NCBI RefSeq assembly: GCF_013122565.1
Contig: NZ_CP053258.1
Length of the DNA stretch: 64,000 nt
Reading direction: 5' to 3' (one strand)
DNA from: Escherichia coli
GTDB lineage: Bacteria > Pseudomonadota > Gammaproteobacteria > Enterobacterales > Enterobacteriaceae
The translations under genes and the position numbers were made by a program. The notes beneath the pieces are model-generated. The model did not search any database. It had not been told where the DNA came from and saw only the letters and a program-made list of their open reading frames with translations. Positions 540 through 34,803 of the stretch are shown in pieces; position 1 is the stretch's first letter, and every line of letters starts with the position of its first letter.

Positions 540-580
540 CGCGCACAGGCGGAGGAAAAAACCTCCGCCTCTTTCACTCA

Positions 581-2020: not shown

Positions 2021-2216
2021 GGGCGACTCCTGTGATTTATATGTTTGTTTTTGGTAAATGCATTGTTAATTAACATCAATCATCAGAGAGACGGCATCGT
2101 GAAAGGACAATTCTGTGAAGGGCTTCATAAAAACAAGTGTAAAAGGAATAAAAGGCAGAAATAAAAGTCAGGAATCATGCCCGTTTGCAAACAAGTGGTT
2201 CACAAACGGGCAATTT

Positions 2217-3017: not shown

Positions 3018-3231
3018 GGTTCCTCCTTATCGTTCCCTTAAGAATACTGCGTGAGATAATAGTGAGAAGCGGAGCACTCTGAAAGGAGGAAGTCGTATTT
3101 CCTTAACCGCCACTCCGCAAGCCTGACATATCTTTTAAGGAAATGCTGTAGATAAACATTATTCATCTTGCAGCAGAGAATTGTATTTTTCTGAATTCCT
3201 GAATTTTTGCCCTTACCGTTTTAGAATTAAT

Positions 3232-3264
3232 AAAAAACCCGGCGCTAAATGCTTACCGGGTTTT
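3232..3264 (-). terminator. intrinsic terminator downstream of hrpA
   Basis: Stem AAAACCCGG / CCGGGTTTT followed on the minus strand by a U-run, about 25 nt past the hrpA stop. Confidence 0.7.
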
Positions 3265-3288
3265 AGATTTATCAGGCAAATAGCCGCG

Positions 3289-6200: not shown

Positions 6201-7191
6201 CGCTGTTCGAAAGCCGCGCATAAAGCGGCAAGATTTCGGTATGGCGTAAGTTCAGCTTGTTCAGCGCATCGGCGGTATCGCGGATTTCCCGCTCGCCGCT
6301 CATAAAGATCAGAATGTCGCCAGGGCTTTCCTGACTCAGTTCGTCTACGGCGTCAAAAATCGCCTGCAACTGATCGCGCTCGGTGTCATCGGCTTCTTCA
6401 ACTATCGGGCGATAGCGCACTTCCACCGGATAGGTCCGACCGGAGACTTCGATAATCGGCGCATTATTAAAGTGGCGCGAAAAGCGTTCCGGGTCGATAG
6501 TCGCGGAAGTGATAATGATTTTTAGGTCAGGACGCCGCGGCAGCAACTCTTTCAAATAGCCGAGCAGGAAATCGATATTCAGGCTACGTTCGTGCGCTTC
6601 GTCAATAATGATGGTGTCGTACTGCATCAGCAGGCGGTCTTGCTGGATCTCCGCCAGCAGGATACCGTCGGTCATCAGCTTGACCATCGTGTTATCACTT
6701 ACGTGATCGCTGAAACGCACTTTGTAACCGATGCAACCGCCCGGCTCCGTTTTCAGCTCTTCCGCAATACGGTTCGCCACTGTTCGTGCCGCCAGACGAC
6801 GCGGCTGGGTATGGCCGATCAGCCCTTTAATCCCACGCCCCAGTTCCATACAGATTTTCGGTAGCTGAGTCGTTTTACCGGAACCCGTTTCCCCCGCGAC
6901 GATCACTACCTGGTGGTCACGAATCGCTTCGAGTATGTCCTGCTTTTTCTGACTAACCGGCAAATTGTCCGGATAGGTAATTTCTGGTCGTGCCGCTTCA
7001 CGCAGCAGGACTTTTCCTGCCGCCTGGTCAATCTCTTTCGCCATCTCCTGGAAAATGGCCTGTTGTGCATCAGGATTTTTAACCTTCTTAACACCGTGCA
7101 GACGGCGAGAAAAACGCAGTCTGTCACGCAGCATCAGCGAATCCAGCCGCTGCTGCAAGGCAGTAAAGGTCAATTTTTGTTGTTCTGTCAT
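3289..7191 (-). CDS. hrpA: ATP-dependent RNA helicase HrpA (DEAH-box)
   Basis: 1300-aa ORF with Walker A GETGSGKT and DEAH motif (IIIDEAHERS). Confidence 0.95.
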   Translation of the reverse strand: MTEQQKLTFTALQQRLDSLMLRDRLRFSRRLHGVKKVKNPDAQQAIFQEMAKEIDQAAGKVLLREAARPEITYPDNLPVSQKKQDILEAIRDHQVVIVAGETGSGKTTQLPKICMELGRGIKGLIGHTQPRRLAARTVANRIAEELKTEPGGCIGYKVRFSDHVSDNTMVKLMTDGILLAEIQQDRLLMQYDTIIIDEAHERSLNIDFLLGYLKELLPRRPDLKIIITSATIDPERFSRHFNNAPIIEVSGRTYPVEVRYRPIVEEADDTERDQLQAIFDAVDELSQESPGDILIFMSGEREIRDTADALNKLNLRHTEILPLYARLSNSEQNRVFQSHSGRRIVLATNVAETSLTVPGIKYVIDPGTARISRYSYRTKVQRLPIEPISQASANQRKGRCGRVSEGICIRLYSEDDFLSRPEFTDPEILRTNLASVILQMTALGLGDIAAFPFVEAPDKRNIQDGVRLLEELGAITTDEQASAYKLTPLGRQLSQLPVDPRLARMVLEAQKHGCVREAMIITSALSIQDPRERPMDKQQASDEKHRRFHDKESDFLAFVNLWNYLGEQQKALSSNAFRRLCRTDYLNYLRVREWQDIYTQLRQVVKELGIPVNSEPAEYREIHIALLTGLLSHIGMKDADKQEYTGARNARFSIFPGSGLFKKPPKWVMVAELVETSRLWGRIAARIDPEWVEPVAQHLIKRTYSEPHWERAQGAVMATEKVTVYGLPIVAARKVNYSQIDPALCRELFIRHALVEGDWQTRHAFFRENLKLRAEVEELEHKSRRRDILVDDETLFEFYDQRISHDVISARHFDSWWKKVSRETPDLLNFEKSMLIKEGAEKISKLDYPNFWHQGNLKLRLSYQFEPGADADGVTVHIPLPLLNQVEESGFEWQIPGLRRELVIALIKSLPKPVRRNFVPAPNYAEAFLGRVKPLELPLLDSLERELRRMTGVTVDREDWHWDQVPDHLKITFRVVDDKNKKLKEGRSLQDLKDALKGKVQETLSAVADDGIEQSGLHIWSFGQLPESYEQKRGNYKVKAWPALVDERDSVAIKLFDNPLEQKQAMWNGLRRLLLLNIPSPIKYLHEKLPNKAKLGLYFNPYGKVLELIDDCISCGVDQLIDANGGPVWTEEGFAALHEKVRAELNDTVVDIAKQVEQILTAVFNINKRLKGRVDMTMALGLSDIKAQMGGLVYRGFVTGNGFKRLGDTLRYLQAIEKRLEKLAIDPHRDRAQMLKVENVQQAWQQWINKLPPARREDEGVKEIRWMIEELRVSYFAQQLGTPYPISDKRILQAMEQISG

Positions 7192-7382
7192 AACGTTAGT
7201 GGGCAGTAGGCTGCCTGATTAATTTTCTTTTAAATGATAGATATAGAGTACCACATCGCAGCTTTCTATGCGTTGTTCAATAAATTCGAACATAGGCTTC
7301 GATTTATTGCGCTATCTCTGTGGCAGGATTGTGAATAAAGTGTCAACAAGCAACGGGGCATCGCCCATTCAAACATCTATAA

Positions 7383-7997
<615 letters not shown>

Positions 7998-8011
7998 CCG
8001 GACACGATCTT

Positions 8012-8038
8012 GATGTGGACTGTAGTTCAGTCCACATC
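8012..8038. terminator. 10-bp-stem hairpin between convergent azoR and ynbD
   Basis: GATGTGGACT (8012..8021) pairs with AGTCCACATC (8029..8038); no clear U-run on either side, so its function as a terminator is uncertain. Confidence 0.45.
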
Positions 8039-8047
8039 TCAATCCAC

Positions 8048-11111
<3,064 letters not shown>

Positions 11112-11126
11112 TTTCTCTATTTTCCT

Positions 11127-12023
11127 TCAGTAACAGCAGTAGCGAATAAAATAAAAAAATACCGGAGCGGTGAAAATTAATGAGTCAATCCTGTCAAGGA
11201 GTCCGCCATGTCCTGGTAATAGTTTTCCACTATCTTTAACACCAATATCTCGTTTGATGGCTGACATCACTACATCGCCGCAAAAACCACTAATACCAAT
11301 TAACAAACCCGCTAATATTGCCTGTAATGTATTTAGCGGTGTCAGTAACGGTCCAATGATCATCGACGCTATCATGGTGGTGATTACGCCGCCGACCAGA
11401 CCTTCCAGCGTTTTTCCAGGGCTGACTTTGGGGACCACTTTTCTTCTGCCGCAGGATTTCCCCCATAAATACTGTGCAATATCGTTTGACTCGGTTAATG
11501 CCAAAAGAAATAACACCAGTAAGGCCCCGCCCTGGATATTTATGGATGGCAACATTAATAACCAGGCGGCATGACTCAAGGCGAAAACGGTCATTATCCA
11601 GCCCCAAAAAATGGCGCTCACGGTACGCAGAAAACCGGAGGGGTCACCCACAAAAACTCGCCAGGTGGCTAATATCAGAAACCCAGCCAAAGGTATAAAT
11701 AACAGAAACAGCTCAAAGCAATTAAAACCGATAAGCAAATAGTTAAGAGGAATAACCCAATATAACCACCGCGGAAAATGTACAGATATAAGCGTACAAT
11801 ATTCTTTCAATGCCAGAAAACTTATCAGCGCAAAAAACGTCAACGTCATCCAGCGTGGACCTGAAATCACCAGTGAAAAACAAATGACGATACCCCACCA
11901 GGTACGAATACGTAATGTAACTTCATCCCCTTTTCTCTCCGGTAACCGCCATACCAGAAAACGGTTTATCAGCGTTGCTAAAATTAACAACGCGAAAAGT
12001 GTTGCCAGAGACTTTTCCAGCAT
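11127..12023 (-). CDS. ynbB: CDP-diglyceride synthetase-like (CdsA family) membrane protein
   Basis: Longest ORF 11127..12059; internal start MLEKSLATLF at 12023 gives 298 aa as in K-12. The ATG overlaps the ynbA stop by 1 nt (TAATG). Confidence 0.8.
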   Translation of the reverse strand: MLEKSLATLFALLILATLINRFLVWRLPERKGDEVTLRIRTWWGIVICFSLVISGPRWMTLTFFALISFLALKEYCTLISVHFPRWLYWVIPLNYLLIGFNCFELFLLFIPLAGFLILATWRVFVGDPSGFLRTVSAIFWGWIMTVFALSHAAWLLMLPSINIQGGALLVLFLLALTESNDIAQYLWGKSCGRRKVVPKVSPGKTLEGLVGGVITTMIASMIIGPLLTPLNTLQAILAGLLIGISGFCGDVVMSAIKRDIGVKDSGKLLPGHGGLLDRIDSLIFTAPVFFYFIRYCCY

Positions 12024-12634
12024 TATCTTACAGCGCTCATAAGAAGCACACTCCGACAACGATTAATCGCAGTCCAGATAAGCAGAATTGAAGCAATGCT
12101 CCATAAAAGATTATTCCATTGCATCCACTGTGGATAAATGGCAACGGTCAGACCCCACAGACCAAATAATAACGCGCGATCGCTTTTGCCAAATGGACCG
12201 GCATAACTGCGAACACCGTTAATCGTCTGCGCGAGTAAACCACAATACTCGGTCAATATGGTGCAAAATAACATGAGTATCACGAGTGATGCGTTACTTT
12301 CCGGTAAAAATAAAAATGGTAAATAGAGCGCAATATCGGAAATAACATCGCCAGTCTCATTCAAAATCGCCCCCAGACGTGTTTGCTGGTTGCACTCACG
12401 CGCCAACATGCCATCCAGCGCATTGAGCGCCATACGGATAAAAAGCACGATGGGCAATAGCAAAAAGAGGATGGGTTGTGCCGCCAACATCAACAGCAAT
12501 CCGGTAAGAAGAGAAAGCGCCAGTGCATCAAGAGTGATGTGATTCGCTGTAACGTGGTGCTTATAAAGCCAAAACATCGTCGGCCTTAACAGCGACTGAA
12601 AGAGCGGTTTTATCTGGTAGAGCGTCATTATCAA
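12023..12634 (-). CDS. ynbA: CDP-alcohol phosphatidyltransferase family membrane protein
   Basis: 203-codon ORF, hydrophobic; first gene of the ynbABCD operon. The start may be 2 codons downstream (MTLYQ). Confidence 0.8.
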   Translation of the reverse strand: MIMTLYQIKPLFQSLLRPTMFWLYKHHVTANHITLDALALSLLTGLLLMLAAQPILFLLLPIVLFIRMALNALDGMLARECNQQTRLGAILNETGDVISDIALYLPFLFLPESNASLVILMLFCTILTEYCGLLAQTINGVRSYAGPFGKSDRALLFGLWGLTVAIYPQWMQWNNLLWSIASILLIWTAINRCRSVLLMSAVR

Positions 12635-12798
12635 TCCTTGATAATTCGGTTTGCGCTATGGTGCATCAATTCCCCTGACGGAGATATCGCAACACGCCGC
12701 TTCATTAAAAATTCAGAATATATCAAGGTATTGGGGACTCACCGTCAGGAATGATTATCCCCAATAAATCAAGTGGTTAAAAATTATTACGCTGTTAT

Positions 12799-15105
12799 TC
12801 AATACAACTCATCAAGTTTTCTCATCGCTTGTTCCCGTATTGCGCGCGTCTTACCGTTAAGCGCCAGCTGCCGAACTAAATCCAGTTCAGGGTTAACAAG
12901 CTCTAACGCCAGCAAAGGATCACGTTTCAGCCTCGCCTTTAATACATCAACTGGAAAACGGGGATTATTCATCGCCACAATCCACCACTCGGGATCAATT
13001 TCTGCCGCCAGTACTGCAGGCGGTGTGTGGCGGTTGTTAAGTGCGCCGAACTTGAAAAATGTGAGATTGCTTTTCGCCAGTGTACTCCACCATATACGAT
13101 CCGGTTGTTTTGCCAGTACATCCAGTTGTGCTAACGCATCGGGGTCTAGTGCATAATAAACACGTAACGCTTCGTTAACCTGCGCACGGGAACTGTTTTC
13201 CTGCCTCAGAAAAAACTTCGCCCAAATATCATTGCGTGGCGTGTTTTGCTGTAATTCCTTGAGAACAACAGCGGGTAAATTATCCCAACTAATTAATGCA
13301 CTCTCTAAAAAGTCCCAGTCGTCCGAACGTATCAGAGAGGTGGCATTTAATAGCATCTGGTCATCAACTTCACCGTAGCTGATAAGCTCAGACAAAATCA
13401 TATCAGCGCTGGTTTCATATGCAGCTGAATCTGCTTTGGGATTATTTTTCCGATGCGATAAAGCACGTTGCCAAATTTTTTGTTTCATTGACGTGCTCAG
13501 ATACTGATTTTTCGCCAGATTACTCCACCCCTCAGGATCGTTGAAACGTGTCAATAACCGTTGTAAAGCAGCGTCAGAGTGAATTACCTGCATATCCCGA
13601 CAGCAAAAGTAGGCAGGGGATTTTTTCTCCATCCTTTTAACAAAATTAAACTGTAAGTTATCTGGCAATGCTAAAAATAACACACGTATTAGATCATCGT
13701 CATTCTCGAATTTTTGGTATAAATATACTGCTATTTTGTCACTCTCTTGTGGCGTCATCCGCAACAATTGACCATGGTGTTTCATCTCTGCCAGCTTTGA
13801 CGCTAAGCTTGTGACAACATCGTTTGATGAATCGTTCGCCAACTGCATTGCCTGATTGTAGGTGAGTTGTCCTCCAGCACCGACCTGACGAATAGAGGAA
13901 TCATCACTGCGGATATAGCCATCAATAATGGATTCGGGCAATAACCACGCATCTTTATAAAGCTCCTGAATGATCATATCCCAATCTCTTTTCGCCAGAG
14001 TCATGACGATATCCAGAGGGAGATTTTCACGTAGCGCAAGATTCAACGGACCGACACCATCAGGTAGATGACTCATTCGCGTCATTATTTCGACAGAGAG
14101 CGGTTCACGGTCGAGCAACCCCAGAACAACAGGCTGGTAACCCAATTGCTGATCGGTCAACTCCAGAATCTCATTGTCAGGCATATATCTCGCCATACTT
14201 TCAATCGTTTGTCCATCATTGCTATTAATAAGTTGTTTGCGTAGGTTAGCTGAAATTCCTTTAAGCCTTGGGAGAGTTCGCATTATGGCAAGATCAAATG
14301 TCGCAATATCTCGTCCTTCAAATGCAGCAACGTTGCCTTCATCCAGCATTTGCAATTCCTGCACTAACTCAGGAGCAGGCTTAGGGCGAAACAGCGCTTC
14401 TTTTTTCATCAGATTACAGACATTCCCTGCCATGCGAATATTGCTTCGCTTAAAAATTTCTTTCAGAGCATCTTCATCATTTATTAGACCCCAATAATAT
14501 GCATCAGGATTTATTATCATCAGCGCTTTTTTGACATTTTCAGTGTCATTTTTGTCACTCGCACGGACCATGAATTCACTATTTGTCGAAGACGCAACAA
14601 CAGGTGCAATTATGTCATTGATAAATATCCCACGCGCATTAATACTCCCCTTAATTGTAGACGGATTATCGTAATATGAGTCGATAAATACCAGTCCACT
14701 TGCATTTATCGAACCGGTAATTAACAGTGGTGAATCCGTAACTATATTCGTTGCCGTCACGTTACCGAGAATAACCCATGGATTAGAAAGAGAGAAAGTG
14801 GAAATATTACCTTTGACTGTCAAATTGCCAAGAACAATCAATTTTTGATTACTCTCTATATTACCGTCTACCACTAAATCGCCACGATGCACTTTCCAGT
14901 CCGATGCAGATAAACCGAAGGGGACAAGATTCACGCTACTGTTGATAGCTTGTTCAACTTGTTGTTTATCTTCAGCGGTAGCCGCAGAAAAAAATGGTTC
15001 AATATCAACTGCATTTGCAACACATCGAAGGTCCGCCTGTACTGGAAGACTCAGCATAAACAGGGGAAGTAAACCTATCCAGCCGCAAATCCTGGCCTTA
15101 AACAT
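12799..15105 (-). CDS. ydbD: large secreted or periplasmic protein YdbD
   Basis: Longest ORF starts at GTG 15111; ATG at 15105 has a GGAG Shine-Dalgarno 5 nt upstream and gives 768 aa as in K-12; N-terminal signal-peptide-like segment. Confidence 0.8.
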   Translation of the reverse strand: MFKARICGWIGLLPLFMLSLPVQADLRCVANAVDIEPFFSAATAEDKQQVEQAINSSVNLVPFGLSASDWKVHRGDLVVDGNIESNQKLIVLGNLTVKGNISTFSLSNPWVILGNVTATNIVTDSPLLITGSINASGLVFIDSYYDNPSTIKGSINARGIFINDIIAPVVASSTNSEFMVRASDKNDTENVKKALMIINPDAYYWGLINDEDALKEIFKRSNIRMAGNVCNLMKKEALFRPKPAPELVQELQMLDEGNVAAFEGRDIATFDLAIMRTLPRLKGISANLRKQLINSNDGQTIESMARYMPDNEILELTDQQLGYQPVVLGLLDREPLSVEIMTRMSHLPDGVGPLNLALRENLPLDIVMTLAKRDWDMIIQELYKDAWLLPESIIDGYIRSDDSSIRQVGAGGQLTYNQAMQLANDSSNDVVTSLASKLAEMKHHGQLLRMTPQESDKIAVYLYQKFENDDDLIRVLFLALPDNLQFNFVKRMEKKSPAYFCCRDMQVIHSDAALQRLLTRFNDPEGWSNLAKNQYLSTSMKQKIWQRALSHRKNNPKADSAAYETSADMILSELISYGEVDDQMLLNATSLIRSDDWDFLESALISWDNLPAVVLKELQQNTPRNDIWAKFFLRQENSSRAQVNEALRVYYALDPDALAQLDVLAKQPDRIWWSTLAKSNLTFFKFGALNNRHTPPAVLAAEIDPEWWIVAMNNPRFPVDVLKARLKRDPLLALELVNPELDLVRQLALNGKTRAIREQAMRKLDELY

Positions 15106-15122
15106 ATGCACTCCATGCCATT

Positions 15123-15159
15123 AAAAAAGAAACAAAAGGGAAATGCATCTTTCCCTTTT
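15123..15159 (-). terminator. intrinsic terminator downstream of ydbC
   Basis: Stem AAAAGGGAAA / TTTCCCTTTT with a 6-nt loop, followed on the minus strand by GUUUCUUUUUU; ends 18 nt upstream of the ydbD ATG. Confidence 0.6.
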
Positions 15160-15168
15160 GTATATTCG

Positions 15169-16029
15169 TTATTCTCGCGAAATACCATCCAACGTAGACA
15201 ACACTTCCTCAGAAAGATGCAATTTTTCAGCAGCCATATTCTCCCGTAAATGCGCAACAGAAGACGTCCCTGGGATCAGCAAAATATTCGGTGAACGTTG
15301 TAACAGCCACGCCAGCGCCACCTGCATTGGTGTTGCACCCAGGCTCGCAGCAACATCGGAAAGCGTGGAGGATTGCAGCGGCGTAAAGCCCCCGAGCGGG
15401 AAGAACGGCACGTAGGCAATGCCATCGCGGGCCAAAGCATCAATCATTGCATCATCCGCACGATGAGCAATGTTGTATTCGTTTTGCACACAGACGATTT
15501 CGGTAATCTTACGCGCCTCTGCAACCTGCGTCGGTGTAACGTTGCTCAGACCAATATGTTTCACCAGGCCTTGTTGTTGCATCTCTGCCAGCACTGTCAG
15601 GCTGGCTTCAATCGAGCCTTCCGCTGGGCCATGACCATCCCCCATCATAATGCGCAAGTTAACCACATCCAGTACGTCCAGCCCGAGATTACGTAGATTA
15701 TCGTGCACCGCTTTTTGCAGCTCTGCCGGAGAAAAGGCAGGCAACCAGGATGCGTCCTCTCCACGCCGCGCACCAATTTTAGTGACAATTGTCAGGTCGT
15801 CAGAGTAAGGATAAAGCGCTTCGCGGATAATCTGATTGGTGACGTGCGGACCATAAAAGTCGCTGGTATCAATGTGATTGACGCCCAATGCCAGCGCCTC
15901 ACGCAGCACGGTAATAGCGACGTGGCGATCTCTTGGGGGGCCAAAAACCCCAGGACCTGCCAGTTGCATCGCGCCATAACCGAGACGGTTAACGGATTTT
16001 GTACCGAGAGTAAATGTATTGCTGCTCAT
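15169..16029 (-). CDS. ydbC: aldo-keto reductase
   Basis: 286-aa ORF with aldo-keto reductase fold sequence; position matches K-12 ydbC. Confidence 0.9.
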   Translation of the reverse strand: MSSNTFTLGTKSVNRLGYGAMQLAGPGVFGPPRDRHVAITVLREALALGVNHIDTSDFYGPHVTNQIIREALYPYSDDLTIVTKIGARRGEDASWLPAFSPAELQKAVHDNLRNLGLDVLDVVNLRIMMGDGHGPAEGSIEASLTVLAEMQQQGLVKHIGLSNVTPTQVAEARKITEIVCVQNEYNIAHRADDAMIDALARDGIAYVPFFPLGGFTPLQSSTLSDVAASLGATPMQVALAWLLQRSPNILLIPGTSSVAHLRENMAAEKLHLSEEVLSTLDGISRE

Positions 16030-16184
16030 CGCACCCTGCCCTGTAATAAAACGGATTAAGAAAAATCAGTATAGAAACGAAAAGAGATAAATAATGCGAA
16101 GGTGTAAACAAGATTGCTTGATGAGTTGCTCTGTTATCCTGAAAGACACCAAAACAAAACGCGTAAAGCGCCGCATCCGGCAAT

Positions 16185-16218
16185 AAAAAAACCGCAACCT
16201 GTATCAGCGTTGCGGTTT
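16185..16218 (-). terminator. intrinsic terminator downstream of ydbA
   Basis: Stem AACCGCAAC / GTTGCGGTT followed on the minus strand by a U-run (plus-strand A-run 16185..16190); a REP-like GCGCCGCATCCGGCA lies alongside. Confidence 0.7.
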
Positions 16219-16237: not shown

Positions 16238-19200
16238 TTAGAACGTTTTCTTGAAGTTCAGCATCACGCCTTTGTCGCTGATGCCGTCCTCTTTCCAGTT
16301 GTACGCATCCAGGTTCAGTGAGCTTTCTTTGCTGCTGTACTTCACGCCGACGCTTGCCAGGCTGTTGATGCCGCCACCCTTCTGACCGTCATCGACGTTA
16401 AAGTGCTGACTGCCTGCGCCTGCCAGGCTTGCCGTGCGCTGGCTCTTCGCGTAGCTCAGATTCGGCCCGCCTTCCAGCGTGGCGCTAGCGCTCCAGCCGT
16501 CTTTACCTGCGTAATCCAGTTTCAACCCGACGATGCTGTCCACCGCCGTTTCGCTGCCACTGTTCATATTCAGGTTAAAGTCTCCGGCATTGCGCTCCTG
16601 ATAGCCACCTTCCAGTGTGTGACGCAGTTTAACACCCGCATATGGCGTAACCTTCAGTCCTTCGCTCGGTTCGAAAGTCTTCGCCCCTTCGCTGCGGAAC
16701 TCCAGGTACTGCTGCTTCACGTCGGTATCAGCCGTTTTGTTTGTGTTGCTAAATGCAATCGAACGGCTGCTGTCAAGGTTGTGAACGTCATAACGCAATG
16801 CGTTATTCCAGTTCATGCCGTTGTCGAAGGACATCTGATGTTTCAGGCCAAAGAACTGGCTGTAGCCGCCGGTTACGCCGTTGTCGCCCGCTTTCTGCGC
16901 ACCATCGCCATCCAGACGCGCAATACCGTATTCCAGGCTCATGCTCTGGCTTTCGCTCAGGTCGATGGTTTTACGCAATGCCAGCATGTCGTACTCGGTA
17001 TTATTACCTAACTCGGCACGCGGATCGCCTTTCGCCACCACGTTGAACGCCAGACCATTGCCCACTTTCGGCGCGGCATCCGCCAGCATACTAAAGCGGT
17101 TGCTTAACACGCGCGCTTCACGGAACACCGTGGTCGCCAGGCTACCGCTGACCTGTTTCAGGGCGCTGTTCAGTTCGGCGGTGGTGCCAACGTTCAGGCT
17201 GGTATACAGCTCGTTGTTGGTGTAACCCGCATCCAGTGCCTTCGCGACGTCATTTACCGAAGCATCGGTTGCGACATCGGTGTAGGCATTTTTGCTCATG
17301 GTAACGTCAACGTTACCGTTGGCATCGGTGCTGCCTTTGGCGTTCCATACGACCGTAGAGGAAACGATGTTGTCCACACCGCTGATGTTTTCGCCTTTGA
17401 ATACATCGTTAACGACAACGGTGGTATCCGCTGTTCCTGCACTAAACCCGGCATTAACACTCACGTTGTCGCCAATCACCAGGTTATTCGCGCTGAGCGT
17501 ACCGGAACTCCCGTCGCTATTGGTACCGATGGTATAGTTGCTCAGCAGTTGCGGCGCATTTGAATCAGCAGGCGGGGTTGGAACATCACCTTGTGACGGC
17601 GTAGTTGATGCGTCTGGTACGGTGATATCCACAGTACCGTTGTGGTCGTTTTGTGTACCCGTTGTTCCAGGAGCATAAATATCGCATCCGGTATCACACA
17701 GCAGGTTAATTTCACCGTTGTTAATGATGGCTTTCGTTTGCCCACCAAACGCCCAGGAATTATCGGCATAGACATTAATCACACCCGTTTGCGTGTTATT
17801 AATTGTTGTTTCCCGACCATTGCCTTTAATACCAATTAAACCTTCGCCATTGGTTCCATCCTGTTGCCCCTGCTCAGTACCCACATTAATGGTGCCACTG
17901 TTCACCAACTGAACAACATAACTGGTTGTGCCGCCACTGATGCCCACCGCATTATCGCCCTGAACATTAATAACGCCAGCGTTAGCAAAGTTATAACCTC
18001 GTCCTAAATCAACCAACGGAGCCGCAGGGTTAATACCATTGATTACCCCTGTTTCTGTGTTCCAGATCCATTTACCTTTACTGTTCGAGCCAGTACTTTC
18101 GGTTTTGATCGCGCTGTAGCCATTTGTAGCCGTAATGGTTCCACGGTTAACCTGAGATACAGAATCCCCGGTTCTGGTTACATGAATAATCGCGTTTTCA
18201 CCGCCCGTTACCGCATTACCACTATTCGTCAGGGTCGCACCCGCTTCGTTGAAGAACAGGAAACTCCCGTTGATGAGTGATTGCCCATCTTCGGTCACCG
18301 TCATTTCACCGGTATTCACTACGTTCTGTTGATAGCTGTTGCCGGTAATTGAACCGCTGAACTCACCTTCGTTAAAGAAGGAAACCGCACCATTCAACGT
18401 AAGGAGATCTGTTGTCATGCTCCCGGTTTCACGGTTATAGATCGTGGTTTTGCTGTTAATACTGTCAACATCCAGGGTCCCACTATTCTCCAACCCTTGA
18501 GTGACACTCAGTTCGCCATTGATGGTCAGACTGGCATCAGGTTGGTTATATAACCAGCCGTTTGCATCAACATTGCCATTAAGCGTTTCATCTCCGTAGT
18601 TTGCCAGGTTATTAACAACGACAAAACCGTCGGTAGTTGTGGTTTTGCTGATGCTCTCCCCGCTACCAGACAACTCGCTAAGAACATCTTTGTCATCCGG
18701 CGTCACCCCCATATGGGAATCACTTTCATCCATTGGATTACCGAAAAGAGTAATTTTTCCGTAGTTGAGAATGGTACCGGTGCTATCTTTATAAAACGCC
18801 TGACCAATATCAGTATTAATATTAATCACACCATCCTGGTCATTAATGGCCAGACCACCTTGAATTGCCCCCATCGCGAACAACTGGTTATCTTGCTGCT
18901 TCGTCACACCCTCATCGGCGGTGAGATTGATCGTTCCCTGGTTGACAACGGTCCCGCCGCTCATCGCCAGCATACCAAAACCTTCGTTATTAACATTGAT
19001 GGTTCCGGTATTTAACCCACTGGCATCGCCATTTCCGATATCGGTTGACCCTACAACAACGCCACCGGACATAAGATAAGGATGGGGTGGTTGCCAGTAG
19101 GATTTACTAATGATATTGCCATCTTCATCAAGTTCGGGAACAAAACCATCGACATTGATTTCCCCGGCATTTGTCGCCGTGCCTTTAGATGCTGCAGCAG

Positions 19201-22200
19201 CATAGTTTCCCGCGCCTTGCAAATTAATGGTGGCGTCAGATTCATTCACTGTGATGCCGTAATCACTGGCCCACAGCCCGTAGTTGACACCGAAATACCA
19301 TTTCAGGGGGGATTCAGACATCCCGCCTGCGTATGCAGGTGTCGTTACAGAGATCAGATTAATAACCCCACCCGACGCATTCGTAACCTGAGAATTCTGG
19401 CCACGAGCACGCATTGTCCCCCCCCTGGAGAATTCCTCACCGCTAGGTTTGACATTAATAATTCCACTATTAGTGATATGTGCACCATTGTTAGCCGTCA
19501 TTAAATCCTGGCTATCCATTGTGTTAATCACACCTTTGTTTTCAACGCTGGACTGACTGCCAATAGCAGAAATAAGCGCACGTTCAAAGAAGAAAAAGTC
19601 GGTTTCCCTGGCTTTACTGGATATATCCGTTACAGCGTTTTCATCAAATATAACTTTTCCACCGTCCGCCACCGAGACCAACGTAAAGGCACCCAATTCC
19701 TGACGGGTATCCATTGTCGAATGACCACTAATGTTAACGGTATTGTCACCAATAACCGATACGCCATCTATAACATGTGCGGCGCTATCACCACTAATAT
19801 TAATACCGCCATCAATATTAACGGTATTCTTCTCGCCAGAAACAATTATGCCACTCACTAAATTTTCCTGGTGTAGCAGCTCCCCTTGTACGGTGATATC
19901 AACATGGCCACTAATATCTACAGTGTTATTTTTACCACTAATCGTTCCACCTGTTAATGCTGTGATTTGTGCATCAGGGTTATCGCCGAGGATGGAATTA
20001 ACATTGATGCTTCCGTCAACGCTAATATGGCTGTCATTACCCGTCAGACTGAAACCTGTAGCACCCGGCGCATTGCCCTCGCTGTCTGGTTGCTGGAATA
20101 CGTTAATATCGCCGCTTAATTGAACCTGTTCACGGTCACCCGCAATGGATACCCCAGTTCCGTACCGTGAAACATCAATTTCGCCCACGTTACCGAAAAC
20201 TTCATCATCACCATCAATCAGAATCCCCACAGAACCGGAATCCGTGACAACAATTTTGCCTTTATTACTTAACTGCGAGTTATTACCGGCAATATCAATA
20301 CCCGTTGCCCCTCCGCTGACGTAGAGGTCACCTTCCTGGCTAATTGTTGCATTGTGACCGGCAACTTTTGTCCCTACTGCATTCGCACCGTCAACCGTCA
20401 TATCCCCGGCGATATTCATCTCATTGCCATCGCCAGTGATGGTTATACCTGTGGCATTTTCACCCAAAATATTAAGATCATAGGTTGCCAGGGTTATACT
20501 ATTGTTGTCGCCGATAATCTCCATGCCAGTCGTATCGTCTTTAACCAGCATTGAGCCAGCAAGAGAAATACTGCTGCTGTCCCCGGTGATTTTTACACCA
20601 GTACCGCTATTTGTTGTGGTGATGTCTCCCACATTGACAAAGGTAGTATTATCACCATTGATTAACACGCCGTAGGGGTTTCCGTCACTGTCCGCCTGAC
20701 CTACATTGATATCACCAATGTTCATAAAGGTTGTTTGATCGCCATCCAGCAATACACCGATGGAAGTATCATCCACCACAGTAACATTACCCTTATTACT
20801 GACGAGAGTACCTTTACCCTCGGCGTCAATACCGTGTGCGCCACCGCTGACGTATAAATCACCCTGTTGCCTTACAATGGCATCTTCGCCGATAATTTTT
20901 GATCCCGTTGAATTTGCACCATCGACGGTCATGTCGCCTTTGATTTCAATGCGGGCATCATCCCCTGTAATCACACTCCCCGTGCCACCATTCGTGATTT
21001 CGACATCACCAACGGTGTTCAACGTAGTACGATCGCCATTGACAATAACGGCCGTACCACCATCGACATCTGTCTCACCATTATTAGTAATGGTGATATC
21101 GTCACCGGTAAGAATACCTACCACCGAACCTTCACCAATCGCGGTAGTTTGACCGTCGTTGTTCAGGGTGATGTCGTTACCGTCAACGTTTATCACAACG
21201 CCGCCATTCAGCGCGATGTTGCCGCCATGGTCGGTAATAGTGGCATCGTTAATATGGAAATGTTCGCCAGTTGTACCGTCTGCGGTGGTGAGTGACTCTA
21301 TGATTATTTCGATTTTTCCCGCTTCGTCATAGCGCCAGGTGGAGGTTCCGCTCGGATTGACGCCATTGAACGAAGCAGTGTTAGCCGCCTCGTCGACTAA
21401 CCAATCCTTTACGATTGTGGTAGTGCCGCCAGGTCCGGTAAGCGTATAGCTGCCATCGTCATTTTTGGTGTAGGTAAAGGTGGTATCACGTAATTTTAGG
21501 GTCTTCGCGTCCTGATCCCAGGTGACATCGTTTTTATAGACCACTGGATCGTGTTTAACTGGCGTGTCATCGCCACCGTCATCCGGGGTGTCATCGCCGC
21601 CATCATCTGGCGGGACGGGGGTGTCGCCGCCATCATCCGGCGGGACTGGTGTGTCGCCGCCATCATCCGGCGGGACTGGTGTATCACCGCCATCATCCGG
21701 CGGGACTGGTGTGTCGCCGCCATCATCCGGCGGGACTGGTGTGTCACCGCCATCATCCGGCGGGACAGGTGTATCACTGCCATCGTCTGGCGGGACTGGC
21801 GTGTCGCCGCCATCATCCGGCGGGATGGGTGTATCACCGCCATCATCCGGCGGGACGGGTGTATCACCGCCATCATCCGGCGGGACTGGCGTGTCGCCGC
21901 CATCATCCGGCGGGACGGGTGTATCACCACCATCATCCGGCGGGACTGGCGTGTCGCCGCCATCATCCGGCACCGGAGACGAATCGTCATGATGATTATT
22001 ATTATCGTGGAGTGCATATACTGCGACACCTGTGACTGCCGCTGCCAGCCCCACTGCAGCCCAGGGTAATAACTCATTATCTTCAACTGATTTACACTCT
22101 GCCGGCAGCTTTTCTAGCTGTTCTTTACTTAGTGATTTAATATTGGCCGGGCAGCTAATCTTGCTGGATTTACGAGATTCATCCGATGTTTCCGCTATCG

Positions 22201-22273
22201 ACGTATCTGCCGCCCATGTCTGGCTGCTTAACGCCATTGCAACACAGACACTGAGCAATTTTTTCCTTTGCAT
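16238..22273 (-). CDS. ydbA: autotransporter adhesin-like protein, intact 2011-aa form
   Basis: Uninterrupted 2011-codon ORF with signal peptide, N-terminal PDDGGDTPVP tandem repeats, long Gly/Thr/Asn-rich passenger region and C-terminal beta-barrel-like domain ending in F. The K-12 copy is split by IS elements (from memory). Confidence 0.85.
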   Translation of the reverse strand: MQRKKLLSVCVAMALSSQTWAADTSIAETSDESRKSSKISCPANIKSLSKEQLEKLPAECKSVEDNELLPWAAVGLAAAVTGVAVYALHDNNNHHDDSSPVPDDGGDTPVPPDDGGDTPVPPDDGGDTPVPPDDGGDTPVPPDDGGDTPIPPDDGGDTPVPPDDGSDTPVPPDDGGDTPVPPDDGGDTPVPPDDGGDTPVPPDDGGDTPVPPDDGGDTPVPPDDGGDDTPDDGGDDTPVKHDPVVYKNDVTWDQDAKTLKLRDTTFTYTKNDDGSYTLTGPGGTTTIVKDWLVDEAANTASFNGVNPSGTSTWRYDEAGKIEIIIESLTTADGTTGEHFHINDATITDHGGNIALNGGVVINVDGNDITLNNDGQTTAIGEGSVVGILTGDDITITNNGETDVDGGTAVIVNGDRTTLNTVGDVEITNGGTGSVITGDDARIEIKGDMTVDGANSTGSKIIGEDAIVRQQGDLYVSGGAHGIDAEGKGTLVSNKGNVTVVDDTSIGVLLDGDQTTFMNIGDINVGQADSDGNPYGVLINGDNTTFVNVGDITTTNSGTGVKITGDSSSISLAGSMLVKDDTTGMEIIGDNNSITLATYDLNILGENATGITITGDGNEMNIAGDMTVDGANAVGTKVAGHNATISQEGDLYVSGGATGIDIAGNNSQLSNKGKIVVTDSGSVGILIDGDDEVFGNVGEIDVSRYGTGVSIAGDREQVQLSGDINVFQQPDSEGNAPGATGFSLTGNDSHISVDGSINVNSILGDNPDAQITALTGGTISGKNNTVDISGHVDITVQGELLHQENLVSGIIVSGEKNTVNIDGGINISGDSAAHVIDGVSVIGDNTVNISGHSTMDTRQELGAFTLVSVADGGKVIFDENAVTDISSKARETDFFFFERALISAIGSQSSVENKGVINTMDSQDLMTANNGAHITNSGIINVKPSGEEFSRGGTMRARGQNSQVTNASGGVINLISVTTPAYAGGMSESPLKWYFGVNYGLWASDYGITVNESDATINLQGAGNYAAAASKGTATNAGEINVDGFVPELDEDGNIISKSYWQPPHPYLMSGGVVVGSTDIGNGDASGLNTGTINVNNEGFGMLAMSGGTVVNQGTINLTADEGVTKQQDNQLFAMGAIQGGLAINDQDGVININTDIGQAFYKDSTGTILNYGKITLFGNPMDESDSHMGVTPDDKDVLSELSGSGESISKTTTTDGFVVVNNLANYGDETLNGNVDANGWLYNQPDASLTINGELSVTQGLENSGTLDVDSINSKTTIYNRETGSMTTDLLTLNGAVSFFNEGEFSGSITGNSYQQNVVNTGEMTVTEDGQSLINGSFLFFNEAGATLTNSGNAVTGGENAIIHVTRTGDSVSQVNRGTITATNGYSAIKTESTGSNSKGKWIWNTETGVINGINPAAPLVDLGRGYNFANAGVINVQGDNAVGISGGTTSYVVQLVNSGTINVGTEQGQQDGTNGEGLIGIKGNGRETTINNTQTGVINVYADNSWAFGGQTKAIINNGEINLLCDTGCDIYAPGTTGTQNDHNGTVDITVPDASTTPSQGDVPTPPADSNAPQLLSNYTIGTNSDGSSGTLSANNLVIGDNVSVNAGFSAGTADTTVVVNDVFKGENISGVDNIVSSTVVWNAKGSTDANGNVDVTMSKNAYTDVATDASVNDVAKALDAGYTNNELYTSLNVGTTAELNSALKQVSGSLATTVFREARVLSNRFSMLADAAPKVGNGLAFNVVAKGDPRAELGNNTEYDMLALRKTIDLSESQSMSLEYGIARLDGDGAQKAGDNGVTGGYSQFFGLKHQMSFDNGMNWNNALRYDVHNLDSSRSIAFSNTNKTADTDVKQQYLEFRSEGAKTFEPSEGLKVTPYAGVKLRHTLEGGYQERNAGDFNLNMNSGSETAVDSIVGLKLDYAGKDGWSASATLEGGPNLSYAKSQRTASLAGAGSQHFNVDDGQKGGGINSLASVGVKYSSKESSLNLDAYNWKEDGISDKGVMLNFKKTF
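21571..21972 (-). repeat. tandem array of about 13 30-bp repeats inside ydbA (encoding PDDGGDTPVP units)
   Basis: Twelve near-identical head-to-tail 30-bp units (CATCATCCGGCGGGACTGGTGTGTCGCCGC on the plus strand) from 21601 to 21960, plus degenerate flanking units; in frame with ydbA. Confidence 0.95.
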
Positions 22274-22674
22274 ATGAAATTCCTCATAAATAGATGCTTA
22301 CGCAGCCCAGATAAACTGCACAGGGTTAAATAGTTAAAAATATTCGAAATCTGGATATTGTTTTTAACAGAATAAATATATTGATTTAGTGAATGTATTT
22401 ATTCATTAAGTCAATATATCTTTTCTTTAATTTATATTTTTAACGCATTTATTTCAACTTAAAATATGGCGTAATTGAGATTAAATCCGATAACACCGAT
22501 GAATTAAATAATGCAATTAATTCATGAAATAAATAAATTATCATGTGAATGAAGCATTCATCATCGGCATCTATATGAAATTAAATGAAAAATAATTCTC
22601 TATAGCATTGCAGTTAATATTGAATATTTCAGGAGGTACAACCAGGCAGATTTTTCTCGACGAATACCGACTTA

Positions 22675-23001
22675 TTATTTTTGCAACCACATTCCGTTTA
22701 TCCCGCGAATGTATTCTCCCGGCTTAGCTTTTGCTACCAGTTTCTGCCCCGCCAATTTTTCCACTTCCGCAACCGGCAGATTATTTTTCATGGCGAGTTG
22801 TTGATAGCTCTTATTACGCGATTCATTAATCCTTTTGACTAACATCTGTGTTTCGGTATCCGCCTTTAATGCAACCAGATAACCATTATACGTTTCGCCA
22901 ACACGCCCCTGAGTTCGAGCGTCATCCAGCGTCAGAGCCATCGCACTGGTGCTAAATAAGGCATTAATGACAAAACACAGTATTAAACTTCTCTTCATCA
23001 T
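22675..23001 (-). CDS. ydbL: DUF1318-family periplasmic protein
   Basis: Longest ORF is 134 aa; internal start MMKRSLILCF followed by a signal peptide gives 108 aa as in K-12. Confidence 0.75.
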   Translation of the reverse strand: MMKRSLILCFVINALFSTSAMALTLDDARTQGRVGETYNGYLVALKADTETQMLVKRINESRNKSYQQLAMKNNLPVAEVEKLAGQKLVAKAKPGEYIRGINGMWLQK

Positions 23002-23005
23002 CGCC

Positions 23006-23191
23006 TCAGAAAAGATCGCTACGAGTTTCAAGCAGCTCTTCGACATCTTTGTCTGCCTTGATGATGATCTCATGCTCAATTTTAACGTTCATATTGATAG
23101 TGATCGGTTCCTTAGGTGCAGCGACTTCAATGCGAGGCGTACAGCCAACCAGCATAAAAGATGACGTCAACGCAGCCAGTAAAATTTTCAT
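23006..23191 (-). CDS. ynbE: small lipoprotein YnbE
   Basis: 61-aa ORF with lipobox LVGC; start overlaps the ydbH stop by 4 nt. Confidence 0.8.
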   Translation of the reverse strand: MKILLAALTSSFMLVGCTPRIEVAAPKEPITINMNVKIEHEIIIKADKDVEELLETRSDLF

Positions 23192-25827
23192 TGTTTTTCC
23201 TCACACTCTTTTCCTTGCGGACAGTCATTTCCCGGCAGACGTGCGTTCTGCTCCAACCATGCCTGGAGATTATCGCCAAAGCGTAAACTGCGCCACAGCG
23301 TAAAAATATTCTCTTCATGATGGTAATTAAGGTTTACCGTACCGCTTTTACCATCAACGCGACTGGTACCTGTAATGTTGGCCTGCATGGTTAATAAACC
23401 GAGATTATCTAAATTAATATTTGTCGATGAACGGCTAATTTCCATATAGCGCAACCAGTTAATTGCTGAACCCGCAGTCATATTGTCTTTCACCACCGCA
23501 TCTGCGGTGTCTTTATCCAGCCGCAAGGTCATTGGCCCGCTATTTGCCAGCCAACCATCTTTCACAATCCATTTTTCGTTGTTTAGCCATAACGGCAATG
23601 CACCACTAAATGCCCCGGACATGGCGAATTGTTTCGGATTGATGGCGCTAACCAGTTCGCTGGATGAGAGATTATTCAGCCGCAACAGCGCCGGGTCATG
23701 TTGCGGCATACGTAATTGTTTCATCAGCACGTTACCGCCTAACACATCGACGCTAACATCAGTCAACAGCAATGGTTCTTCTTCTGTCCACGGATAGCGC
23801 CCTTGCAAATCAGCCGTAATATTTTTCGCTGTCACCAGATTAATCACTTCGGCAATTCGCAACGTAACGGGGCCGCGAGTCCCCAGATGCCAGGCTCCAT
23901 CGGCAAAACGGAAAGGCAGGACAAAATCGACACCGTTAACCTGATTATCTGGCATCCAGGCACTACCGCCTTTCAACACGCCGTGCCCTCCCGCGCGGAA
24001 TCCTTGTTCAGGCGCAGCAGAAAATGCAACCTGAGCATACAGTTCACCATCGCGTAAGTTCATCTTCCAGTCGGGTGGCACCAGCGGCTGGAATACAGTC
24101 AGTGATTGTTTAGGCCACCAGGCGTTACCGCGCAGACGAATACCGTCCCAGCGACCATTTACCCGAACCGGGCCAATCTCACCAGCATGTAAATCGCCTT
24201 TAAAGAGGAAATAGGTAGGATCGCGCCCATCGACACTAAATTTTAAGGTTGATGGCGGTAACAGACTGCCGCCAGTGAACAGCGTTTGCCCGGCGTCCAG
24301 TGACAGCGCGCCGCTGAAGGAGGGATGCTGTGCGTCACGTACCCAGACGACGGGCTTGTCGAGAATTAGTCGCGGCTTTTCTACCGTCATCGTACCGTAT
24401 TGTAACTGGTCGAAACCGGTGGAGAGATCGGTCAGCGTAATCGTGCTGTCATGCCACTCACCTTTTCCTGCGACATCCCAGGTGGCATTCATCGGTGTAA
24501 AACTGCCTTTTCCCCAGTAGCGCCACTGCCAGCGGCCAGCGTCAGGGAGAAAATCATTCGCCAGCCCATCCATATGCAGCACGAAATCGCCCAGTTCATT
24601 TTCATGCGCCTGCAAGATGGCCTGCAAACGTCCGTCAACACCACGTTGGGTGACTTTTACACCCGCTAAAGGCCAGCGGATTTCATCGATGTCCAGCGAA
24701 TCGATGACTCTTCCCTTCGAACGTAATAACGCGCCTGGCTCAAAGGCTAACGTTGGGTCAGTCAGACTTCCACTTAGCTGCGCGGGTAAGCGGGCATATA
24801 AAATGAGGTCCGCCTGTTTCGCTTCACCGGTCAGCTGCAGAGGCAGCTGACTGTTATCCATGCTTAATTTTCCTGGGCCAAAATTAAGCACCGCGTTGCC
24901 CTTACCCGCTTGCCCCTGGGTCAGCACACTCAGTCGTCCGCTGACCACTGCGTTCTCGATACCTGCCTGCCAGTTGTCGACTTTGACACCCAGTCGTCCA
25001 CTCAAAGGAAAACCTACATACGGCCAGCTCCAGCGACCATCGCTTACCGTCAATTGTTGACGAGTAATTTGCCACGGCAAATCGAGCAACGGATCGCCGT
25101 TATCCCGTGCCAGCACAATCAATTGCCCGCTATTTTCCTGCCAGTCCAGCTCGGCATCCACCAGTGACGGTTCCTGCGGCAAGTTTAACGTCGCAGTAGC
25201 ATGCCCACTTACAGGAAGTCCATCCGGCACTAGCGGCATAGTAAATTCCCCCACCAGTTTTACCGGCGGCTGATTTTCAAACGCGGCGACATCCAGTTCG
25301 CTGACTGTAAGTTGTTGCCCTTTCAACTGGCCTTGAAATTTAACTTTTTCGCCCTGATAACGCAGTTGCTGGATATCAGAGGTTAATGCGAGAGAGAGTT
25401 TTCCCTGCCATTCCTGCCAAGGAGAAAAAATCAGTTTATCGATATTGATCCAGGTGTTAGGCAGCATGGACTGCCACTGCGCGAGGGTTTTTGGAGCGGC
25501 TGGCGATTGCTCCGTCTGCGGCAATTTCGCCAGACAAGCAGAATCAAGTTCTACCGTGCCGACGTTCAATAACCAGCGGCTGGGATGTGAAAGGCTGGCG
25601 TTGGTGATATGCGCAAGCTGACAATCTCCCACCAGATAACGGAGATCGGGAATGATTAAACCTTTACGCGTAATGCGTGGGCTTTCATCTAATGCAATAC
25701 GTGTCCCGAGCGGTAGCCAGATGCCCGCCAGCGTGGGAACCCACAGCCCGAGCGTCATCAGCAGCGTCAACGGCACAAGAATAATCAGTAATAACAGCGC
25801 GAGAACGGCTTTATATTTACCCAGCAT
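23188..25827 (-). CDS. ydbH: AsmA-like envelope protein YdbH
   Basis: 879-aa ORF with N-terminal membrane anchor; first gene of the ydbH-ynbE-ydbL operon. Confidence 0.85.
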   Translation of the reverse strand: MLGKYKAVLALLLLIILVPLTLLMTLGLWVPTLAGIWLPLGTRIALDESPRITRKGLIIPDLRYLVGDCQLAHITNASLSHPSRWLLNVGTVELDSACLAKLPQTEQSPAAPKTLAQWQSMLPNTWINIDKLIFSPWQEWQGKLSLALTSDIQQLRYQGEKVKFQGQLKGQQLTVSELDVAAFENQPPVKLVGEFTMPLVPDGLPVSGHATATLNLPQEPSLVDAELDWQENSGQLIVLARDNGDPLLDLPWQITRQQLTVSDGRWSWPYVGFPLSGRLGVKVDNWQAGIENAVVSGRLSVLTQGQAGKGNAVLNFGPGKLSMDNSQLPLQLTGEAKQADLILYARLPAQLSGSLTDPTLAFEPGALLRSKGRVIDSLDIDEIRWPLAGVKVTQRGVDGRLQAILQAHENELGDFVLHMDGLANDFLPDAGRWQWRYWGKGSFTPMNATWDVAGKGEWHDSTITLTDLSTGFDQLQYGTMTVEKPRLILDKPVVWVRDAQHPSFSGALSLDAGQTLFTGGSLLPPSTLKFSVDGRDPTYFLFKGDLHAGEIGPVRVNGRWDGIRLRGNAWWPKQSLTVFQPLVPPDWKMNLRDGELYAQVAFSAAPEQGFRAGGHGVLKGGSAWMPDNQVNGVDFVLPFRFADGAWHLGTRGPVTLRIAEVINLVTAKNITADLQGRYPWTEEEPLLLTDVSVDVLGGNVLMKQLRMPQHDPALLRLNNLSSSELVSAINPKQFAMSGAFSGALPLWLNNEKWIVKDGWLANSGPMTLRLDKDTADAVVKDNMTAGSAINWLRYMEISRSSTNINLDNLGLLTMQANITGTSRVDGKSGTVNLNYHHEENIFTLWRSLRFGDNLQAWLEQNARLPGNDCPQGKECEEKQ

Positions 25828-33117: not shown

Positions 33118-33125
33118 ATCCTCCT

Positions 33126-33149
33126 GCCCGCTGTTTTGGCGGGCTTTTT
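33126..33149 (+). terminator. intrinsic terminator of ompN
   Basis: Stem GCCCGC / GCGGGC with loop TGTTTTG, followed by T5. Confidence 0.8.
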
Positions 33150-33176
33150 CTGCTTATTCTTCCTCCTTTGATCTAA

Positions 33177-33692
<516 letters not shown>

Positions 33693-33699
33693 CACTAAC

Positions 33700-33724
33700 G
33701 CCCGCACATTGCTGCGGGCTTTTT
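33700..33724 (+). terminator. intrinsic terminator of uspF
   Basis: Stem GCCCGCA / TGCGGGC followed by T5, 8 nt after the uspF stop. Confidence 0.8.
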
Positions 33725-33867
33725 GATTCATTTCGCAAATGTGCTGACATTTTCCCCTCTAATCCGTACCATACACGCCACAGTTTTTATATCAGATTTC
33801 TTATGCTGGGCGTTCCGGCATGACGCATACTCTTCTGATGCCATATAACGAATTGAGTCGCTTTTAA

Positions 33868-34803
33868 ATGTCGCAAAATCAAGAAATTAGCAAGAAAGAA
33901 CAATACAATCTGAACAAATTACAAAAACGCCTGCGTCGTAACGTGGGCGAAGCCATAGCTGACTTCAATATGATTGAAGAAGGCGATCGCATCATGGTTT
34001 GCCTCTCCGGGGGTAAAGACAGCTATACCATGCTGGAGATTCTGCGCAATTTGCAGCAAAGCGCGCCAATCAATTTTTCACTGGTGGCTGTTAACCTCGA
34101 TCAAAAGCAACCGGGCTTCCCGGAACACGTTCTGCCCGAGTATCTTGAAAAGCTGGGCGTTGAGTACAAGATTGTTGAAGAGAACACTTACGGTATCGTG
34201 AAAGAGAAGATTCCAGAGGGCAAAACCACTTGCTCACTGTGTTCTCGGCTACGTCGCGGTATCCTTTATCGCACCGCAACGGAACTGGGGGCGACGAAGA
34301 TCGCGTTGGGCCACCATCGTGACGATATCCTGCAAACGTTGTTCTTAAATATGTTCTACGGCGGCAAGATGAAAGGTATGCCTCCGAAACTGATGAGCGA
34401 TGATGGCAAACATATCGTTATTCGTCCACTGGCCTACTGCCGCGAGAAAGATATTCAGCGATTTGCCGATGCAAAAGCGTTCCCGATTATTCCGTGCAAC
34501 CTGTGCGGTTCACAGCCTAACCTGCAACGACAAGTGATTGCTGACATGTTGCGTGACTGGGATAAACGTTATCCGGGGCGTATCGAGACGATGTTCAGCG
34601 CGATGCAGAATGTGGTGCCGTCGCATCTGTGCGATACCGACCTGTTCGATTTTAAAGGCATTACCCACGGTTCTGAAGTGGTTAACGGCGGTGATCTGGC
34701 GTTTGATCGCGAAGAGATCCCACTACAACCGGCGGGCTGGCAGCCTGAAGAAGATGAAAATCAGTTGGATGAGTTACGGCTGAATGTGGTTGAAGTGAAA
34801 TAA
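33868..34803 (+). CDS. ttcA: tRNA 2-thiocytidine biosynthesis protein TtcA
   Basis: 311-aa ORF with PP-loop SGGKDS and CxxC motifs. Confidence 0.9.

Follow-up and report, generated by a model that had tools for sequence, protein, structure and literature searches.

The 401 bp between ydbL and ydbA in this Escherichia coli sequence probably form the native sequence upstream of an intact autotransporter gene of the ydbA/BigA type and are part of one of several old, non-alignable ydbL-spacer-ydbA haplotypes, in this case one free of the feaRB-tynA-paa island. The spacer would supply ydbA with a promoter, a 5′ leader, and a ribosome-binding site, and several such mutually non-alignable haplotypes would circulate in E. 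coli through recombination. The haplotype described here bears no sign that the island ever lay between ydbL and ydbA. What is mildly new is the depth of the divergence among ydbL/spacer/ydbA haplotypes, together with a conserved dyad in the spacer. The window is the whole stretch of DNA that was analyzed (64 kb), and the features at this locus are as follows.

16238–22273, minus strand: intact ydbA/BigA-family autotransporter gene (2011 aa)
17354–23000, no strand assigned: haplotype block divergent from K-12 (ydbA passenger region, spacer, and ydbL; ~5.6 kb)
21594–21971, minus strand: 30-bp tandem repeat in ydbA, 12.6 copies, encoding PVPPDDGGDT units after the N-terminal region
22274–22674, minus strand: AT-rich spacer, 26.7% GC; presumed ydbA regulatory region and 5′ leader
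22280–22285, minus strand: Shine-Dalgarno sequence GAGGAA, 6 nt 5′ of the ydbA ATG; unchanged in the six alleles aligned below
22369–22426, minus strand: 58-bp imperfect dyad (26-nt arms, 22/26 complementary, 6-nt spacer)
22429–22457, minus strand: sigma-70 promoter-like site (-35 TTGAAA, 17-nt spacer, -10 TAAATT); predicted start near 22422
22675–23001, minus strand: ydbL (DUF1318), deeply divergent allele (~70% nucleotide identity and 68% mature-protein identity to K-12)

The limits of the spacer (22274 to 22674) follow from the ATG of the ydbA-like open reading frame (ORF), which ends at 22273, and from the ydbL stop codon at 22675 to 22677. The minus-strand order is the ydbA-like ORF (16238 to 22273), the 401-bp spacer, ydbL (22675 to 23001), ynbE (23006 to 23191), and ydbH (23188 to 25827), and ldhA lies on the plus strand. 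The GC content of the spacer, 26.7%, compares with 49.6% for the whole window. No other 401 bp of the window are as AT-rich, and nowhere else in the 64 kb is a 401-bp stretch below 32% GC. An earlier note on this DNA had pointed to an AT-rich ydbL-ydbA junction of about 400 bp, and our coordinates and base composition confirm it.

A divergent block spanning ydbL, the spacer, and the ydbA passenger region

Right of ~23000 (ynbE onward), the window and K-12 are 99 to 100% identical; going leftward, the drop to ~70% coincides exactly with the ydbL start codon. On the other side, up to 17353, in the autotransporter barrel and beyond, identity to K-12 is 97%, and the match vanishes through the passenger region. 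Within 17354 to 23000, only ydbL aligns with K-12, at ~70%. The earlier note had taken the spacer for the boundary of a variable locus. Because the divergence runs well past the spacer on both sides, the spacer is not an edge; it sits inside the block of ~17354 to 23000, which is bounded by the ydbL start codon on one side and ends within ydbA on the other.

The gene downstream of the spacer matches the Pfam domains BigA_N and BigA_beta (PF25784 and PF25783) and carries, as expected of a BigA/YdbA locus, both domains plus a C-terminal barrel homologous to that of K-12 ydbA. The NCBIfam model auto_BigA covers residues 534 to 2011 with 2053 bits, which is under its 3400-bit cutoff. The barrel end (16238 to 17353) is 97% identical to K-12 ydbA_2; insertions of IS2 and IS30 split the gene in K-12. 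It is also interrupted in other strains: 6EVA carries an internal stop, and in WP7-S17 and MB06232 the gene is fragmented. Identity of the passenger region to other E. coli alleles is only 30 to 60%. Within the set of genomes carrying this junction, the first ~400 YdbA residues and the barrel are conserved, and the central passenger is mosaic, with 18 to 59% amino acid identity to the ST405 allele. Gaps relative to the ST405 allele over residues 101 to 300, a stretch that includes the tandem repeat, suggest that repeat copy number varies between strains. The N-terminal layout of the protein is unusual: at residues ~52 to 90 (22058 to 22120), a second hydrophobic stretch, LLPWAAVGLAAAVTGVAVYAL, follows the predicted signal peptide and is itself followed by a His/Asn/Asp-rich segment and then by the proline-rich repeats.

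The ydbL allele is as distinctive as the passenger. In a search of 5.8 billion proteins, the 96 to 99% matches to the window YdbL were all labeled E. coli (one, P0005, is also labeled MULTISPECIES Enterobacteriaceae), and nothing from another genus exceeded ~72%. Other YdbL alleles, from other E. coli, E. albertii, E. marmotae, E. ruysiae, Citrobacter, and Salmonella, are 63 to 75% identical to it, and the Escherichia, Citrobacter, and Salmonella alleles are mutually 72 to 90% identical. In a neighbor-joining tree, the window YdbL branches outside all of the Escherichia, Citrobacter, and Salmonella alleles compared. E. coli has at least five deep alleles of ydbL, a gene commonly counted as core. 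One protein, P0014, appears from its sequence to be a YdbL recombinant, since its N terminus is window-like and its remainder is K-12-like.

The position of the window YdbL in the tree, its identity of 68 to 75% to all Escherichia, Citrobacter, and Salmonella alleles (mutually 72 to 90%), and the onset of divergence exactly at the ydbL start codon would all be expected if a block comprising ydbL, the spacer, and the 5′ part of ydbA had been imported from an enterobacterium outside Escherichia, replacing earlier content including the island. We consider such an import unlikely, because no donor was found in 100,044 species-representative genomes, which were scanned with six 8-residue YdbL peptides and yielded no carrier and only an unrelated 37% Arsukibacterium match. 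The labels of the close protein matches likewise argue against a foreign donor: all those at 96 to 99% are E. coli, and other genera reach ~72% at most. So does a 9.8-kb contig from Logan accession SRR14866762 (L012) with a 90%-identical ydbL allele and a 75 to 91%-identical spacer. Its backbone is ~95% identical to E. coli over nifJ to ydbH, and the contig may come from a divergent Escherichia lineage. A 90% allele on an Escherichia-like backbone is compatible with a lineage that has long resided in the genus and evolved quickly next to a hypervariable surface-protein gene.

The best match to positions 1 to 16200 among 5426 complete E. coli genomes is 98.3%, and none reaches 99%, so the source lineage seems to be poorly represented in complete RefSeq genomes. 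At 33118 to 34803, ompN, uspF, and ttcA are directly consecutive, as in 6EVA (according to the 6EVA annotation and a collinear alignment). K-12 carries the Rac prophage between ttcA and uspF, a site that appears to be unoccupied in the window.

A promoter-like site and a conserved dyad in the spacer

Six alleles of the spacer were aligned: those of the window, 6EVA, ST405, WP7-S17, MB06232, and the divergent contig L012. In a promoter consensus scan, TTGAAA-17-TAAATT was the only minus-strand consensus match inside the spacer, and both hexamers are unchanged in all six alleles, including the 75 to 91%-identical one. The scan returned fewer sites, not more, than expected over 22000 to 23100 (2, versus 4.0 ± 2.0 in shuffles), and because the region has fewer consensus sites than its shuffles, a single promoter-like site counts as weak evidence.

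The dyad at 22369 to 22426 starts at the predicted transcription start, and its score was equaled by none of 500 shuffles. It folds as a hairpin in both minimum free energy and centroid RNA predictions, with only a moderate gain for the RNA fold of the whole leader (z = -2.4 versus shuffles). Pairing within the dyad is kept in 98.6% of cells over the six alleles, a count that does not discriminate between an RNA hairpin and a DNA operator. Variation consists of three pairs with a one-sided, wobble-compatible change, one of which is already G-U in the window, and two pairs that are broken, each in one of the six alleles; no compensatory substitutions occur among the six. Scanning metagenomes with a conserved 28-mer recovered six contigs, all from the same locus and all of known alleles, so the covariation test of the dyad gained no power. 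We regard the dyad as a candidate 5′-terminal RNA hairpin or DNA operator. If transcription starts at TTGAAA-17-TAAATT, as we infer, the dyad would form the 5′ end of the ydbA leader in one role or the other.

Conservation along the spacer is uneven. Between the window and L012, the ydbA-proximal 184 bp, which include the promoter-like site, the Shine-Dalgarno sequence, and the dyad, are 90.8% identical. The ydbL-side 217 bp are 74.7% identical and the ydbL third codon positions are 81.5% identical. That the proximal half exceeds both the distal half and the third codon positions indicates constraint in the ydbA-proximal half of the spacer.

This pattern bears on two other readings of the spacer, as AT-rich DNA without function or as what is left of a small mobile element whose inverted repeats form the dyad. 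A long inverted repeat within AT-rich DNA would suit such readings, as would the lack of a known RNA family match: no covariance model of Rfam 15 matched positions 21900 to 23300 up to E = 1. Both are nevertheless improbable. An 86-nt query with the dyad sequence matches the same 114 of 5426 complete genomes as the spacer does, in essentially one place each, and is not dispersed in the manner of a repeat or MITE. The dyad-bearing half of the spacer is more conserved than the ydbL third codon positions, and no comparable dyad turned up when the spacers of K-12, the O157 type, and MS8345 were searched; the dyad is absent from these other haplotypes.

Two other elements were considered and dropped. 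The earlier note had drawn attention to short palindromes in the spacer. The palindrome TGAATGAAGCATTCA does exist, at 22546 to 22560, but perfect palindromes with 6-nt arms are no more frequent in the spacer than chance predicts (2, versus 1.9 ± 1.8 in 500 dinucleotide-preserving shuffles), and TGAATGAAGCATTCA is lost in related alleles; on both grounds it is ruled out as a meaningful element. No conserved small ORF was found in the spacer, and a 31-aa ORF at 22449 to 22544 was dropped as a gene after a stop codon was found to interrupt it in the aligned WP7-S17 and MB06232 alleles.

The spacer as native upstream region of ydbA may also be a target for silencing. The K-12 paaY/ydbA spacer (1463061_385, H-NS class K) is among 78 “promoter islands” recorded as H-NS bound in ChIP data sets (Panyukov and Ozoline 2013, PMC3661553, Table 1). 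By analogy with this K-12 counterpart, we infer that the extreme AT content of the window spacer would make it a target for H-NS, and H-NS-type silencing of the ydbA promoter region is plausible. Like a promoter island, the spacer comprises at least 300 bp of strongly AT-rich DNA next to a variable or acquired gene (401 bp, 26.7% GC, beside the hypervariable ydbA). The dense promoter-like sites that also characterize such islands were not seen in the consensus scan, which is a weak test since the original definition uses PlatProm. Near-matches to the H-NS motif TCGATAAATT occur at 7.5 per kb versus 1.6 per kb, an enrichment attributable to AT-rich composition alone.

The missing island and the haplotypes of the ydbL-ydbA interval

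In the annotated K-12 MG1655 record, the order is ydbL-feaR-feaB-tynA-paaZ-paaABCDEFGHIJK-paaX-paaY-(21-aa ORF)-ydbA, which is the order that the earlier note had given. Its figure of about 17 kb for the intervening DNA was too low: in K-12 the two genes lie 19.2 kb apart, and the inserted segment defined against a clean empty site (that of MS8345) is ~18.8 kb. In the window, ydbL is the immediate neighbor of ydbA and no fea, tynA, or paa coding sequence separates them, as in strains negative for the paa island. A tblastn search of the 64-kb window with 17 K-12 island proteins found no fea, tynA, or paa genes and gave only paralog-level matches to aldA, and when the window was compared with the K-12 locus by blastn, no island remnant was found. 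The note's claim that the island is missing thus holds at this locus, where the gap of 401 bp leaves no trace of the 17 island genes in the window by either method. With no island between ydbL and ydbA, this haplotype is predicted to lack the phenylethylamine and phenylacetate catabolism encoded at this site.

The spacer has no detectable similarity to the K-12 ydbL-feaR or paaY-ydbA spacer by blastn, even at word size 9. Homology with the paaY-ydbA spacer was rejected, as a forced alignment gave ~50% identity, the level that AT-rich DNA reaches by chance through composition. Other island-free or reduced arrangements differ from the one in the window. The MS8345 type (L007) consists of the K-12-type paaY-ydbA and ydbL-feaR spacers cleanly joined, with the island gone. 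Genomes with this clean junction are not countable by the MS8345 spacer, since 83% of that query also matches island-bearing genomes. In another type (L004, NZ_CP098203.1), found in ~900 genomes, the last 250 bp of feaR are joined to a fragment of paaY, leaving a feaR′/′paaY scar. The giant autotransporter gene beside this scar (positions 1 to 8346 of L004) is annotated in RefSeq as “EntS/YbdA MFS transporter,” which looks like a naming error in which YbdA was mistaken for YdbA. A third haplotype, that of O157:H7/ETEC6335, occurs in 375 genomes; there, ydbL adjoins a full-length autotransporter gene across a spacer of ~408 bp and 27% GC that is alignable with neither the window nor K-12. The ydbA-upstream spacers of all haplotypes have 25 to 30% GC.

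The clean join in MS8345 and the feaR′/′paaY remnant in ~900 genomes are real deletions, but that the window spacer is itself a deletion scar, a fused ydbL-feaR and paaY-ydbA spacer left when a K-12-like ancestor lost feaR through paaY, is very improbable and largely refuted by the alignments, because sequence searches link the spacer neither to the K-12 spacers nor to feaR or paaY, and because ydbL at only ~70% identity and a non-alignable ydbA passenger show that the whole block differs, beyond the junction alone.

Counts were taken over the 5426 complete E. coli genomes. The spacer is present at 91 to 98% identity in 114 of them, and 3147 contain paaABC. When the spacer and K-12 paaC through feaB were queried together, 3426 places in 3416 genomes matched. 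Some part of the paaC-feaB block is present in ~3302 genomes, and ~2124 (39%) lack it. The paa and fea queries alone already give 4 and 6 surplus places, so co-occurrence of the junction with paa, tynA, or feaB elsewhere in the genome is near zero: by these counts, at most ~10 of the 114 junction genomes carry such genes elsewhere, and probably none does. Goldstone et al. 2016 (PMC4951805) described the paa locus as a heterogeneous region that is flanked by ydbH-ynbE-ydbL and ynbC-ynbD and includes ydbA, and Leimbach et al. 2017 (PMC5422975) noted that phylogroups B2 and E lack the island. Since ~39% of genomes lack the block and the heterogeneity is already published, absence of the island is ordinary and already documented.

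The picture suggested by these comparisons is that of a hypervariable surface-protein locus whose adjacent control region and ydbL would have diverged along with it and been swapped by recombination. We put forward more tentatively, as a possibility, that the module at ~21000 to 23000 is an ancient allelic lineage with its own regulation, maintained by adhesin-linked selection across Escherichia or introgressed from an unsampled enterobacterium, and that the presence or absence of paa hitchhikes on ydbA haplotypes. If so, the regulatory logic of the module would lie in the conserved promoter and the 58-bp 5′-terminal dyad, which is missing from other haplotypes, and paa presence or absence would be a hitchhiking property rather than simple gain or loss of an island.

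Comparison with known systems

The wider importance of the locus is slight: it predicts no use of phenylacetate or phenylethylamine via the paa/fea/tynA route, an absence common to ~39% of sequenced E. coli. Modestly useful is the finding that the interval between ydbL and ydbA exists as several deeply diverged haplotypes (ydbL, ydbA control region, and adhesin passenger) and is not a simple site with the island in or out. This calls for caution when “core” genes such as ydbL are used to anchor flanks or when results on ydbA regulation in K-12 are carried over to other strains.

The junction occupies the same site as the paa region of Goldstone et al. 2016 and Leimbach et al. 2017 (PMC4951805 and PMC5422975), between ydbH-ynbE-ydbL and ydbA…ynbC-ynbD, with ydbA included and the island missing from lineages such as B2 and E. 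Those studies describe the presence and absence of genes, whereas the window adds non-alignable ydbL/spacer/ydbA alleles and this particular spacer sequence. A structural parallel is the O157:H7/ETEC6335 junction, in which ydbL also adjoins a full-length BigA-type gene across an AT-rich spacer of similar length (~408 bp, 27% GC) with no paa island. It is nonetheless a third haplotype: its spacer is not alignable with that of the window, its ydbL has ~74% nucleotide identity, it lacks the dyad, and it is commoner (375 genomes versus 114).

The K-12 promoter island resembles the window spacer in its position directly 5′ of ydbA, its length (330 to 385 bp), and its base composition (25% GC versus 26.7% here), and it likewise precedes a variable, presumably acquired surface-protein gene. 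The two differ in that they have no detectable sequence similarity, and the ChIP-documented H-NS binding belongs to the K-12 allele only. With respect to the Salmonella BigA/E. coli YdbA adhesin family, the window gene departs from known members in its auto_BigA score (2053 versus the 3400-bit cutoff) and in its mosaic passenger, 30 to 60% identical to other E. coli alleles, but it shares with the family the BigA_N and BigA_beta domains and an auto_BigA match over residues 534 to 2011.
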